A stretch of DNA of 15,593 nt from a virus. Position numbers and translations under genes: made by a program. The stretch lies in UHGV virus genome UHGV-0078853; one strand, 5' to 3'. This document shows, piece by piece, positions 6,366 through 12,680 of this stretch. The notes beneath the pieces were generated by a model. The model saw only the letters and a program-made list of their open reading frames with translations, did not search any database and had not been told where the DNA came from. Positions within the stretch are counted from its first letter, which is position 1. Each line of letters opens with the position of its first letter.

Positions 6366-6430
6366 AGAATCCCCTTGCATATGCGTCTGACCATCAGAGC
6401 GCATCAGACGCGCCCTACGCGTCTAAAGGG

Positions 6431-8072: not shown

Positions 8073-8101
8073 AATATAGTAGGGTCTAGGGTAGTAGTCA
8101 A
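8073..8101 (-). promoter_or_regulatory. near-consensus sigma70-type promoter (TTGACT-N17-TATATT, minus strand)
   Basis: Minus-strand -35 TTGACT at 8101-8096 and -10 TATATT at 8078-8073 with a 17-nt spacer; about 35 nt upstream of the ATG at 8039. Confidence 0.6.
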
Positions 8102-8123
8102 CTAGTCATTGCGGAAGATAGAT

Positions 8124-8155
8124 AAAAAAAATCCCGGCTGGGTCAGGGCCGGGAT
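8124..8155 (-). terminator. strong rho-independent terminator ending the lysis operon
   Basis: 8-bp stem ATCCCGGC/GCCGGGAT with a 9-nt loop, followed on the minus strand by eight U residues (plus-strand A-run 8124-8131). Confidence 0.8.
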
Positions 8156-8219
8156 GAAACTGGAGAGCAGAGGGATGGAGCAGGAGGTGATTTAAGTATC
8201 GTCGGATTAGTCTTAGGTG

Positions 8220-8297
8220 TCAACCTTCGCCGTAACCGACCTGCTCGTCAATATCGTCACGAGATTTAACTGGGTTGGTGAACTCTTGCAGTGCCAT
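8220..8297 (-). CDS. possible 25-aa micro-ORF downstream of endolysin
   Basis: ATG 8297 with a GGAGG Shine-Dalgarno 5 nt upstream; translation MALQEFTNPVKSRDDIDEQVGYGEG; no other support. Confidence 0.25.
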   Translation of the reverse strand: MALQEFTNPVKSRDDIDEQVGYGEG

Positions 8298-8366: not shown

Positions 8367-8852
8367 TCATTTAACTGCCCTCCCGATAGCTTCAGCCTCT
8401 CGCCACGGTTTACCGTCGAACAGCGCCAGACGCCCGGCGGTACGGCGACGCAGGCCAAGTAGTGGTTTGCCGTTCTGGTTGATGAACAGCGCCAGCTTAG
8501 CCCGCAGTGTTGCAGTATCACCAGAACGCAGTGCCTTGCCTGTGCCCGTAGTAGACGCAATCACGCCAGCACCTGCGTTATACACCAGGTCACACACCGC
8601 ATCGAACTGTGCCTGTGTAAGCGAATGGTGCGCCGCGGCATCAACCGCAGCTACGGCTTTAGACATATCGCGATTCAGTAACAGGAGGCCTTGCCCCGGG
8701 GTGATGGTCTTACCCGGGGTTACGTCCGGTCCGTAGTGCCCGTAGCCAATAGTCAGGTACTTCTCGTTCGACGTAGCACGATACGCAGTTCCGCAGAAAG
8801 TCTCCCATGCGGCGGTAAAATGCAATCCATTATCTGAAATGTTTCGAGACAC
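8367..8852 (-). CDS. endolysin, phage lysozyme (GH24, T4 e-like fold)
   Basis: Motifs YLTIGYGHYG and FDAVCDLVYNAGAG are typical of phage lysozymes. Most plausible start is GTG 8852 preceded by GGAGGG (7-nt spacer); the track ORF extends to 8903. Confidence 0.8.
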   Translation of the reverse strand: MSRNISDNGLHFTAAWETFCGTAYRATSNEKYLTIGYGHYGPDVTPGKTITPGQGLLLLNRDMSKAVAAVDAAAHHSLTQAQFDAVCDLVYNAGAGVIASTTGTGKALRSGDTATLRAKLALFINQNGKPLLGLRRRTAGRLALFDGKPWREAEAIGRAVK

Positions 8853-9102
8853 GCTTATGCCCTCCGTATGACAGCCACGCCTGGCGAATCTGGCGCAGCG
8901 CAACTAATGTGATTAATGTCTCAGGCAGCGTTGGTGACATGCTGCCCTGTAACAGGTGGATACATCCGGCAGCGCAGACGATAGCAGTCAGGATATAGTG
9001 CACCCGACCAAATAGCCCGTCATCCACGCTCGGATGGTATACATTAAACAGCGATGTGCCGCCGATTGCCAGCATACCGCCGAACCAGAATAACTCATTC
9101 AT
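8830..9102 (-). CDS. holin-like membrane protein (2 predicted TMDs, 90 aa)
   Basis: ATG 9102 with a GGAGG Shine-Dalgarno 5 nt upstream, overlapping the last codons of the upstream holin; two hydrophobic segments and a basic C-terminus. The track ORF (8830-9282) starts too far upstream. Confidence 0.55.
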   Translation of the reverse strand: MNELFWFGGMLAIGGTSLFNVYHPSVDDGLFGRVHYILTAIVCAAGCIHLLQGSMSPTLPETLITLVALRQIRQAWLSYGGHKRVSKHFR

Positions 9103-9403
9103 CTGTGCCTCCTCGACGCGCGATGTATTCTCCAGCGACGATACTGGAGAGACGGGAATAGATAGGCATCCAGAGAATAGCGATGATGAAGCCAAGGCCA
9201 GCGATTTCACGGTCGCCCGCGATACCGAACCATTGAGCCGCGAGAGGTGCGCCAAATACAGCGCAGGCGAAACCAGTAGCAATAAAGCAGAATCCGTCGA
9301 TAGGGCCAGAAATAACGGACTTATGTTGTCGTAGTCCGATGACCCCTCCGGCGAGCGCGGCGGCGAGAAGCCAGCCTGTCACTGTTTCAGTAAATTTATC
9401 CAA
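9095..9403 (-). CDS. holin (3 predicted TMDs, 102 aa), TTG start
   Basis: Three hydrophobic segments and a charged C-terminus (ARRGGTDE). The only in-frame start is TTG 9403, preceded by GGAGGA. First gene of the lysis cassette, upstream of the endolysin. Confidence 0.6.
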   Translation of the reverse strand: MDKFTETVTGWLLAAALAGGVIGLRQHKSVISGPIDGFCFIATGFACAVFGAPLAAQWFGIAGDREIAGLGFIIAILWMPIYSRLSSIVAGEYIARRGGTDE

Positions 9404-9410
9404 GATGAAT

Positions 9411-9446
9411 CCTCCAGGTGCGTATTAAGTACGCAGTAACTGGAGG
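9411..9446 (-). promoter_or_regulatory. interrupted hairpin sequestering the holin Shine-Dalgarno
   Basis: CCTCCAG (9411-9417) pairs with CTGGAGG (9440-9446), with an inner 6-bp stem 9419-9424/9430-9435. On the minus-strand mRNA the holin GGAGG lies in the 3' arm. Confidence 0.45.
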
Positions 9447-9478
9447 ATACCACGGGTAGGAATTATCTTAATAACGGT

Positions 9479-9772
9479 TTATTTATGCCGCCGGATGTAT
9501 TGTCGTCTCTGTGGTTTCGTCGGAATATCATCGTATCCCTGCGATTTCCAGTAATTAAATAACCGATTAGCGATAGCGGCGCGTTCTTGTGTTTTGAACT
9601 CACCGAGATTAACAGCCTTCCCGTTCTGGAATCCACAGGCGCGGATAGCTTTGCGTCTGGTCTGAATCTCCGGGTACAGCGCATTACGGCGGCGCTTGTA
9701 TATCTGTGTTTTAGCTCTCGGCGACAGCGGCGCAAGGCCGCTTCGTTTCAGGATGTCAGTTGCCAGGCTCAT
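9479..9772 (-). CDS. small basic DNA-binding protein, possible AP2-like domain
   Basis: Segment RKAIRACGFQNGKAVNLGEFKTQERAAIANRLFNYW resembles the AP2/ERF-type core (LG-F-T-EE-AA-A) seen in phage AP2 proteins; ATG 9772 overlaps the upstream stop as ATGA. Confidence 0.4.
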   Translation of the reverse strand: MSLATDILKRSGLAPLSPRAKTQIYKRRRNALYPEIQTRRKAIRACGFQNGKAVNLGEFKTQERAAIANRLFNYWKSQGYDDIPTKPQRRQYIRRHK

Positions 9773-12363: not shown

Positions 12364-12422
12364 GAGATTAGTTACGTTGCCGTTGTGATTCTTTCGTTTC
12401 TTAAAGGAGTACGCAACGCAGT

Positions 12423-12442
12423 GGGTGGGCGTTAGCCCACCC
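12423..12442. promoter_or_regulatory. stable GC hairpin GGGTGGGC-gtta-GCCCACCC in the early-left leader
   Basis: 8-bp perfect stem with no adjacent U-tract on either strand; lies between element B and the proximal promoter. Confidence 0.45.
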
Positions 12443-12483
12443 CAGCGGAGTGAAGTACTCTCTACCTCACTCACTCACGGCAA

Positions 12484-12680
12484 CTATAGAAACTTTTAAT
12501 TATCAGTGACTTGGGTATTTAGGCGGGATTAACAATAGACTTTGGCCCTTCCGAAAGCGCCAGCGGAACTACACTCAAGTGCCTAATGGCACGCGTTGCG
12601 TTCCCTGCCGCTCCGCGGTCGCTTGCGATATCTCACAAGCTCAGTGAAGCTTAGCATATTTTTAAGTAAAAGTCAATACT
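12484..12680 (-). repeat. copy B of the conserved promoter-leader element
   Basis: See 1216-1408; same blocks in the same order and orientation. Confidence 0.8.
12648..12676 (-). promoter_or_regulatory. putative promoter inside element B (TTGACT-N17-TAAGCT, minus strand)
   Basis: Minus-strand -35 at 12676-12671 and -10 at 12653-12648; identical architecture to the copy-A promoter. Confidence 0.4.

Follow-up and report, generated by a model that had tools for sequence, protein, structure and literature searches.

The window analyzed here, the whole 15,593-nucleotide (nt) stretch of UHGV virus genome UHGV-0078853, comes from a K1G-like siphophage (Kagunavirus, Guernseyvirinae), and the approximately 1.5 kb around the element described below, a hairpin that masks the Shine-Dalgarno (SD) sequence of a holin-like gene, matches 127 phage records at 80-95% nt identity. 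All genes of interest are encoded on the minus strand, where a small open reading frame (ORF) is followed, in 5' to 3' order, by a 75-nt intergenic leader, two holin-like genes designated H1 and H2, and a gene encoding a lysozyme; the stop codon of the small ORF, which encodes 97 amino acids (aa), lies 75 nt 5' of the H1 start (Table 1). The lysozyme gene is preceded by a GGAGG(G) SD at 8865-8860 and overlaps the 3' end of H2 by 23 nt. With members of PHROG 2359 and PHROG 2508 and a GH24 lysozyme all present, these genes are the front end of the standard lysis cassette (H1, H2, soluble lysozyme) of Guernseyvirinae and Dhillonvirus. More than 100 GenBank records label this cassette as class I/II holin-like plus endolysin, and K1G ORF44-46 are annotated as holin, holin and endolysin. 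The tandem holin-like genes pointed out in a preliminary description of this DNA are thus not new, and the cassette is an ordinary, already annotated one. The class numbering is inconsistent in GenBank; many records call H1 "class II" and H2 "class I", others swap the two labels, and the proteins are often listed simply as "hypothetical". The annotated cassettes of Kagunavirus (K1G, K1H, ST20, fTaEco01 and others), Jerseyvirus and Dhillonvirus share their genes, gene order and overlaps with the window, with 89-95% nt identity. Nothing essential differs from the annotated cassettes, the sole peculiarity of the window being a single A to G substitution, by which the leader hairpin acquires a perfect upper stem.

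The leader hairpin consists of a 9-base-pair (bp) lower helix with five G-C pairs, formed by the 5' arm ATCCTCCAG (9448-9440) and the 3' arm CTGGAGGAT (9417-9409), and a 6-bp upper stem in which TGCGTA (9435-9430) pairs with TACGCA (9424-9419). The H1 SD, GGAGG, is located 7 nt before the TTG start codon and was found paired throughout (7/7). The preliminary description had placed this GGAGG in the 3' arm of an interrupted 13-bp hairpin; the SD does lie inside that arm (9415-9411 within 9417-9409), and the hairpin is well supported, with a minimum free energy (MFE) of -21.3 kcal/mol and a z score of -5.9, but its helices measure 9 and 6 bp here rather than 13 bp. None of 200 shuffled sequences (0/200) gave an equal fold, and the hairpin falls within the top 0.34% of the 31,090 49-nt windows on both strands of the window. 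The SD is therefore wholly contained in a stable helix that adjoins the start codon, as in an SD-sequestering operator. In 12 of the 15 leader variants surveyed for helix pairing, the centre of the upper stem carries an A x C mismatch, which reduces the stability to between -16 and -17 kcal/mol; the perfect upper stem, with a G at its centre and -21 kcal/mol, is peculiar to this window, and the upper stem is thus not maintained as a helix within the genus. A scan of the whole window against Rfam identified no family.

Table 1. Features of the lysis cassette, its leader and its downstream boundary in the window.
Feature	Coordinates	Strand	Basis
Last gene of the upstream small-ORF operon, 97 aa, unknown function	9479..9772	-	ORF list, translation; phrog_9632, E 8e-54
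Conserved non-coding block AAACCGTTATTAAGATAA	9461..9478	-	kept in divergent lineage L165 despite differing flanks
Possible extended -10 element TGgTATCCT overlapping the 5' arm	9444..9452	-	position weight matrix scan; start predicted near A9437
SD-masking hairpin	9409..9448	-	folding, sliding-window rank, 15 leader variants
H1, 102-aa holin-like protein, TTG start	9095..9403	-	translation; phrog_2359 "holin", E 7e-29
H2 SD, GGAGG	9108..9112	-	within the H1 3' end, 5 nt upstream of the ATG; junction survey
H2, 90-aa holin-like protein, ATG start	8830..9102	-	phrog_2508 "holin", E 1e-32
Endolysin (lysozyme), 161 aa, GTG start	8367..8852	-	PF00959, E 5e-25; translation
Downstream boundary module (P1, CU-rich stretch, terminator, P2)	8073..8223	-	promoter scan, sequence

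Conservation of the hairpin within Kagunavirus was assessed with 64 distinct leader plus H1 sequences retrieved from IMG/VR, metagenomes and GenBank, among which 24 different leaders are represented. Neither the SD nor the anti-SD varied in any of the 64. The mean pairwise difference was 0.030 in the hairpin region (-45 to -1), compared to 0.135 in the 35 nt further upstream and to 0.096, 0.047 and 0.348 at H1 codon positions 1, 2 and 3, respectively. Since the hairpin region is less variable than even the second codon position of H1, it must be functional, and these comparisons indicate that the hairpin is a real, strongly selected element. The lower helix was 99.3% paired across the 15 leader variants, and the only changes observed were G.U-compatible; the three substitutions in the 5' arm (C to U and A to G in the divergent Kagunavirus-type lineage L165, A to G in locus L039) all yield G.U pairs, which keep RNA pairing on the holin sense strand and break the DNA palindrome. 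These data also bear on the idea that the inverted repeat could be an operator acting at the DNA level, or a chance or neutral feature without a role in H1 expression. As for any inverted repeat, the plus-strand fold is equally stable, which would fit such an operator or a neutral repeat. However, the substitutions preserve pairing only on the holin sense strand and break the DNA symmetry, the hairpin region is more conserved than codon position 2 of H1, the z score is -5.9, and structure, but not sequence, is conserved across five clades (see below). We therefore disfavor this explanation and consider it highly improbable.

The 5' part of the leader contains the conserved non-coding block listed in Table 1, which includes TTAAGA (9471-9466), a possible -35 element. 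Some Kagunaviruses (e.g., locus L044 591-1031 from phage G AB-2017, vB_VIPECOMC04, CR01 and BCH953P1), as well as the Jerseyviruses (ORF49), carry an additional gene between the upstream ORF and the leader, which encodes a 146-aa HslV-family peptidase-like protein, and in these genomes the block forms the 3' end of the HslV-like gene (last codons CTA TTA GGA TAA). The block is also the left edge of a leader plus holin module that has recombined into Salmonella phage LSPA1 (KM272358; L029 1780-2003). In this phage, a complete terminator hairpin of the Jerseyvirus type, together with approximately the first 26 codons of a Jerseyvirus-type H1, is joined at ...AAACAGCTATTAGGAT to a leader and holin of the Kagunavirus type, which shows that leader and holin recombine as one module; the upper stem of LSPA1 shows compensating changes (GTATA/TATGT). 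In Escherichia phage vB_EcoS_fTaEco03 (MT711528; L043 9330-9700), a 299-bp tandem duplication, either real or an assembly artefact, extends from the 3' end of the upstream ORF across the entire leader hairpin and into H1, of which it includes approximately the first 40 codons, and the truncated H1 copy is annotated as "putative antiholin/holin class II protein".

The start codon downstream of this hairpin is a TTG (9403-9401; the H1 stop codon is a TGA at 9097-9095), which the preliminary description had regarded as the only possible start of H1. This was confirmed; the H1 frame is closed upstream by an in-frame TAA (9427-9425) within the hairpin loop, no ATG, GTG or TTG is present between this TAA and the TTG, and the next in-frame candidate, a GTG at codon 8, is not preceded by a purine run that could serve as SD. 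Moreover, the TTG aligns with the ATG or GTG starts (M-D-K/R/D...) of homologues from three other clades and was found in 64 of 64 Kagunavirus-type sequences. In a rough survey of the 30 genes predicted in the window, H1 was the only gene with a TTG start and had the most negative start-region MFE. The masked start explains why gene callers disagree on the start codon of H1. A second, independent TTG-initiated H1 was found in L158 (1189-1200; IMG/VR 3300045988_058438), a variant of the Klebsiella phage type in which the H1 ATG has become ATT and a TTG one codon upstream is the only start left.

The best explanation for these features, held with roughly even confidence, is that the SD-masking hairpin acts in cis as a brake on H1, reinforced by the UUG start codon, within an otherwise standard lysis cassette. 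The upstream operon has a good promoter candidate (TTGCAC-17-TACTAT, 12363-12335, minus strand), and no terminator-like site was found on the minus strand between this promoter (~12340) and H1, so that RNA polymerase starting there would run into the lysis genes early in infection. In all such read-through transcripts, which would carry both arms, the anti-SD AUCCUCCAG would pair with CUGGAGGAU, and this pairing would sequester the only SD that H1 has within a 9-bp helix, 7 nt away from the weak UUG codon, strongly depressing H1 initiation. H2 and the lysozyme gene each retain an unmasked GGAGG and overlap the preceding gene, and could be made through coupling or independently. Low holin synthesis from early or read-through transcripts may thus guard against premature lysis and help to set the lysis time. 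In a simplified estimate of the type used in ribosome-binding site (RBS) calculators, unfolding costs 16.2 kcal/mol when the 5' arm is present but 4.1 kcal/mol when it is absent, corresponding to a predicted masking effect of about 230-fold; in the same rough model, in which the UUG term is approximated, masked H1 initiation is about 100-fold below that of H2 and about 30-fold below that of the lysozyme gene. The size of the effect on translation is hence a model estimate, and its link to lysis timing is likewise inferred. Two other types of control were considered and rejected. The helix is too stable for an RNA thermometer, and translational coupling from the upstream ORF can be dismissed because its stop codon, 31 nt from the 5' arm in the window and 14 nt in relatives that carry the HslV-like gene, is too far away for a terminating ribosome to open the helix.

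RNA masking of the start of a lysis gene is a known mechanism. In phage T4, a hairpin in the start region of gene e lowers lysozyme synthesis approximately 100-fold (McPheeters et al. 1986, reviewed in PMC3014915), and the effect predicted for H1 is of the same order. Gene e and H1 share several features, as both are lysis genes that can be read from upstream early transcription, both have the SD or start sequestered by a 5' strand, and in both the DNA encoding this strand contains a -10-like element. They differ in that the T4 gene encodes a lysozyme and uses gp55-dependent late promoters, whereas the gene studied here encodes a holin and has a putative weak σ70 extended -10 element; in the sister genera of Kagunavirus the hairpin is, in addition, a terminator, unlike the T4 hairpin. 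The phage lambda S gene has an sdi stem-loop that takes part in the dual-start control of holin and antiholin. The sdi structure is small and partitions ribosomes between two in-frame starts (S107/S105). H1 resembles lambda S in being a class-I-like holin gene whose initiation, and hence lysis timing, would be tuned by RNA structure at its 5' end. H1 differs in that it has a single UUG instead of a dual start, that its SD is fully buried in a helix of far greater stability, and that a second membrane protein is encoded by a gene of its own; a lambda S-type dual-start motif for holin and antiholin was not present in H1.

The trio of H1, H2 and lysozyme genes was also found in Jerseyvirus, in a group of Klebsiella phages of the 37P2 type, in Dhillonvirus and in two further metagenomic lineages, and homologues of H1 and H2 are paired with a PF00959 lysozyme in Jerseyvirus Ent1, Klebsiella phage 37P2 and SSL-2009a. 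In all nine lineages compared (9/9), which belong to at least five clades, the H1 start is preceded at a distance of 1-9 nt by the end of a hairpin with a stability of -14 to -25 kcal/mol. No relationship is seen between the stem sequences of different clades (CCTCC/GGAGG; TCTCCGAA/TTCGGAGA; CCCCCGAA/TTCGGGGG; TCCCAGT/ACTGGGA; CCCCCGTG/CACGGGGG); the purine-rich arm is nevertheless the 3' arm in every one of the nine lineages, and the best run complementary to the anti-SD within the last 22 nt lies wholly within this arm. Compared to Dhillonvirus, lineage L090 has an additional C-G pair inserted on both arms. Start codons of H1 are TTG in Kagunavirus and L091, GTG in Jerseyvirus, and ATG in Dhillonvirus and the Klebsiella type. 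The common denominator across clades is thus an SD-masking hairpin adjoining the start codon, with termination and a weak start being frequent but not universal. Three scans of IMG/VR and one of metagenomes for more distant lineages retrieved only clades already found, and two large protein searches retrieved only close relatives; the alignment of nine clades was too divergent to be used as a search query.

In most of these clades, the hairpin is also a canonical intrinsic terminator. Canonical U-tracts that run into the start codon were found in Jerseyvirus, Dhillonvirus, L090 and L091 (tail score of about 4), the tail of L165, UUAUUUUG, is U-rich, and in Salmonella phage vB_SenS-Ent1 (HE775250.1) the homologous hairpin, which follows the HslV-like gene and abuts the start of the H1 homologue, was annotated by its authors as a rho-independent terminator upstream of ORF50. 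As the hairpin is also the only terminator-like site from the operon promoter through to H1, it could primarily serve as a leaky intrinsic terminator or attenuator, marking the end of the upstream operon and limiting how much transcription enters the lysis genes, with SD masking as a by-product of a GC-rich stem. For the window this seems unlikely. While the GC-rich stem-loop of a terminator is present, the U-tract is not. Compared to the Ent1 hairpin with its clean U6 tract and GTG start, the hairpin in the window has a 22-nt interior, a perfect GGAGG and, in common with all common Kagunavirus leaders, the tail UCAUCUUG, which scored only 1.1; a consensus scan called neither a terminator nor a promoter at the H1 leader. 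The tails of the Klebsiella type and of L157 are poor as terminators as well. Furthermore, a terminator requires neither the purine-rich 3' arm found in all five clades nor the perfect GGAGG at ideal spacing found in Kagunavirus. Comparison with the sister genera suggests that the Kagunavirus hairpin is the local form of an element located at the same position in all relatives, with a U-tract that has degenerated and an SD that has turned perfect in Kagunavirus.

Several observations weigh against a simple brake on H1. A weak start codon is not a family-wide feature, given that Dhillonvirus and the Klebsiella type use ATG, and the SD in the 3' arm of Dhillonvirus is weak (GGGA, -3.9 kcal/mol), so that the G-rich arm there may be a mere terminator stem. 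Within Kagunavirus, variation was too low for covariation to be detected and no shuffle test was passed. The 22-nt loop is conserved in sequence without a need for pairing, which a pure SD mask does not explain. Finally, a mask of -16 to -21 kcal/mol combined with a UUG codon might leave too little H1, in which case some relief mechanism, such as an internal promoter, processing or an activator, would be needed. No transcript-end mapping or genetic analysis of these holins was found in the literature, and the only RNA-seq study of a Kagunavirus found is too coarse to resolve the holin genes or transcript ends. The proposal in the preliminary description that holin translation is deliberately throttled by RNA structure and a weak start codon therefore holds in part; the SD is locked in a stable and conserved helix, the TTG is invariant in the genus and the model predicts a roughly 230-fold effect, but a constant throttle on all holin mRNA is less secure, given the intrinsic terminators that sister genera carry at the same position, abutting the start codon, and the promoter-like sites described below; the hairpin may silence read-through transcripts only.

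One form of relief would be a promoter located inside the hairpin, as in T4 gene e. A host σ70 promoter could overlap the 5' arm (TTAAGA-16-TGgTATCCT) and initiate near 9437; its mRNA would lack the anti-SD and would be translated well. Operon read-through would then be terminated (in the sister genera) and/or translationally silent (in Kagunavirus), and the hairpin would represent an insulator rather than a constant throttle. We regard both the promoter and the insulator role as possible but doubtful. The extended -10 element TGgTATCCT is the best site in the leader in a position weight matrix (PWM) scan, with 8.6 bits, although 67 of 500 shuffled sequences contained sites as good. In four clades, the top promoter-like site in the 95 nt upstream of H1 (TGgTATCCT, TGcTAATCT, TGaTATAGT and TTGCAG-18-TATACT) predicts that transcription would begin immediately beyond the 5' arm, 26-34 nt upstream of the start codon, with the -10 element on or touching this arm. 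The site of the Klebsiella type is similar in form to the candidate promoter of the upstream operon, and L157 retains both of its hexamers with a changed spacer. The variable positions in Kagunavirus are the spacer and the N of the TGN motif, and L165 keeps the blocks GTTATTAAGATA and TGGTATCCTC with the spacer replaced. The strong terminator that lies directly against the start codon in Jerseyvirus, Dhillonvirus and L091 leaves no room for a promoter downstream, hence expression of H1 requires either read-through or an internal start. Conservation of the loop beyond the need for pairing, a terminator that bounds the cassette downstream as well, and the precedents of T4 e, soc, 49 and I-TevI (PMC3014915) are also consistent with an embedded promoter. 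On the other hand, the promoter matches are weak (6-9 bits, compared to 12-14 bits for the conserved promoters P1 and P2 downstream of the cassette) and none of them beats shuffled sequences (45-295 of 500), the -35 hexamer varies (TTAAGA, TTAGGA or TTCGGA) and the spacing is shifted by 1 nt in L165. The standard consensus scan found no promoter at the leader, conservation of the -10 element is equally well explained by its role as the anti-SD arm, and AT-rich sequence beside a GC-rich stem biases where -10-like hexamers fall. Tentatively, the cassettes of Guernseyvirinae and Dhillonvirus might be insulated units in which a hairpin that combines terminator and SD mask has the -10 element of a host σ70 promoter overlapping its 5' arm, so that this promoter would fire transcripts free of the mask; the logic of T4 e would then have evolved independently, with host RNA polymerase, and have been applied to the holin.

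Downstream of the cassette, a boundary module (Table 1) starts with a near-consensus promoter, P1 (TTGACA-17-GATACT, 8223-8195), which is followed on its 3' side by a CU-rich stretch of approximately 45 nt with several anti-SD-like motifs (CACCUCCUG, CAUCCCUCU, CUCUCCAG), and ends with a second near-consensus promoter, P2 (TTGACT-17-TATATT, 8101-8073). A strong terminator (ATCCCGGC/GCCGGGAT followed by T8, 8155-8124) lies between the CU-rich stretch and P2; the standard terminator scan missed it because its loop is 9 nt long. The module was found in Jerseyvirus Ent1, in L095 (2520-2680) and in every Kagunavirus and Jerseyvirus locus; its promoter hexamers do not vary whereas the spacers do, and between genera the terminator stem shows covariation. 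The module could encode a small RNA of approximately 70 nt or represent an antitermination unit for the late genes similar to lambda pR'-tR'. A small RNA encoded here would be one candidate for a factor that opens the mask in trans late in infection, others being a phage translational activator, in the style of Mu Com and mom, and processing of the RNase III type. The very strong predicted repression suggests that some relief exists, the conserved unpaired loop could serve as a binding site, the phage has many small ORFs of unknown function, and the CU-rich RNA, bounded by a promoter and a terminator, is conserved and encoded just downstream. Nevertheless, the CU-rich RNA would behave like the 5' arm by base-pairing to the SD and hence would not open the mask. 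For RNase III, the duplex would have to be lengthened by the upper stem, which contains a mismatch in most relatives. L165 and the other clades have entirely unrelated loop sequences, and no candidate activator was identified. Opening in trans is accordingly an improbable explanation in our view.

The brake proposed above would act on a protein for which the assignment as a holin derives solely from PHROG and GenBank annotation, as does that of H2; neither H1 nor H2 had a match in Pfam or NCBIfam at E <= 0.1, and no curated holin family was matched. H1 is 76-98% identical to Kagunavirus proteins and 45% identical to its Dhillonvirus homologue, and also aligns with homologues from Jerseyvirus and Klebsiella phages. 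It has three hydrophobic segments, a basic loop 1 and an acidic loop 2, as judged from hydropathy and charge pattern, and AlphaFold predicted helices at residues 2-26, 34-59 and 64-89 with low confidence (predicted local distance difference test score, pLDDT, 59). AlphaFold models of H1 and H2 (pLDDT 57-59) were used for helix counts only and not for fold searches. The three transmembrane domains (TMDs) that the preliminary description assigned to H1 thus fit the available predictions, and an N-out/C-in topology with three TMDs is plausible. The endolysin has a hydrophilic N-terminus (VSRNISDNGLHFTAAWE...) without a membrane or signal-arrest-release (SAR) segment, which indicates a soluble lysozyme. 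Because such an endolysin lacks a signal or SAR segment, some holin is needed, and a lineage with H1 but no H2 exists (see below); both points are indirect evidence that H1 may form the hole. No spanin was found in a search near the cassette, and the spanins described for the Jersey family (PMC6139136) were not located in the window.

The H2 ORF extends from an ATG at 9102-9100 to a stop codon at 8832-8830 and overlaps H1 by 8 nt (ATGAATGA), and the preliminary description was correct in reporting this overlap along with a perfect GGAGG of its own (9112-9108). The H1/H2 junction (ATGA(A/C)TGA overlap) is kept in all Kagunavirus loci examined that have H2, as are the lysozyme start, its SD and the 23-nt overlap with H2, and SSL-2009a has an ATGA overlap. 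H2 homologues were found in 622 phage records, 333 of them from Salmonella phages. Hydropathy and charges indicate two hydrophobic helices, a weakly hydrophobic TMD1 (LFWFGGMLAIGGTSLF) and a strongly hydrophobic TMD2, followed by a long basic C-terminal helix, and AlphaFold predicted helices at residues 2-21, 29-51 and 60-86 (pLDDT 57, low confidence). Two TMDs, as suggested by the preliminary description, fit these data, but this number is insecure since a third hydrophobic segment of membrane-spanning length is present in the homologues of Jerseyvirus and Klebsiella phages, and TMHMM found three TMDs in the homologue of Jerseyvirus S10 (PMC9677904). H2 was also considered as a pinholin (S21-type class II), which would have two TMDs, the first of them a Gly/Ala-rich SAR-like helix, and a SAR endolysin as partner; the hydrophilic N-terminus of the endolysin does not agree with this.

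The organization of two small membrane-protein genes adjoining an endolysin gene is shared with two-gene holin systems such as P1 LydA/LydB, T4 T/RI, P2 Y/LysA, SPP1 gp24.1/gp26 and LysF1a/LysF1b of F1-cluster mycobacteriophages, and examples of such adjacent pairs have been described (PMC9025707, PMC13056207). There is no sequence relationship to these systems, and the endolysin is soluble here, unlike the SAR endolysins of P1 and Mu. Expression of the two homologues from Jerseyvirus S10 revealed toxicity for that of H2 but not for that of H1, although the use of trigger-factor fusions for both makes this weak evidence; the same study renamed the H1 homologue "endolysin" because TMHMM found no TMD (PMC9677904). 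H2 has been cleanly deleted in one lineage, represented by six contigs of approximately 36-41 kb (e.g., ERZ28594344 scaffold_189), in which H1 is followed by TAA, GGAGG and the lysozyme GTG, and all that is left of H2 is its last 11 codons, which now form the leader of the lysozyme gene. No H2 homologue was found within 10 kb on either side. This lineage is L165 (L165 1440-1860; L272 9890-10350; L273), a divergent Kagunavirus-type lineage (65% identity in H1); two wobble changes preserve the lower helix of its leader, the loop of which is unrelated, with the interior wholly replaced. The deletion implies that H2 is not universally required, and H1 and the lysozyme apparently suffice without it, with the caveat that the gene upstream of the hairpin in this lineage encodes a different small membrane protein of 98 aa. 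Possible roles of H2 include those of a co-holin, an antiholin, both of which the preliminary description had proposed, or a redundant holin.

Other stable structures were observed elsewhere in the window. The most stable local structures are located at 12405-12470 and 12592-12640 (GGGTGGGC...GCCCACCC, -27.6 kcal/mol, no U-tract), in a divergent control region between the candidate promoter TTGACT-17-TAAGCT (12676-12648) and the promoter candidate of the small-ORF operon, TTGCAC-17-TACTAT. The third most stable local structure (6378-6426, minus strand; -24 kcal/mol in 49 nt) consists of two stable hairpins that flank the ATG (6404) of the small terminase subunit gene, for which no obvious SD was found.

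Members of Kagunavirus and Jerseyvirus have widely been put forward as agents of phage therapy and biocontrol. While an RNA structure that guards a lysis gene is textbook biology (T4 e, lambda S), what is new, on the basis of the comparison across genera, is the SD-masking hairpin at the holin start as a family-wide feature, together with the possibility of an embedded promoter; the conceptual gain is small unless a promoter in the hairpin is confirmed. If it were, lysis timing would be set by the promoter in the hairpin and the UUG codon. A family-wide hairpin over the RBS of the first lysis gene represents a concrete and easily mutated handle on lysis timing and burst size in these phages.

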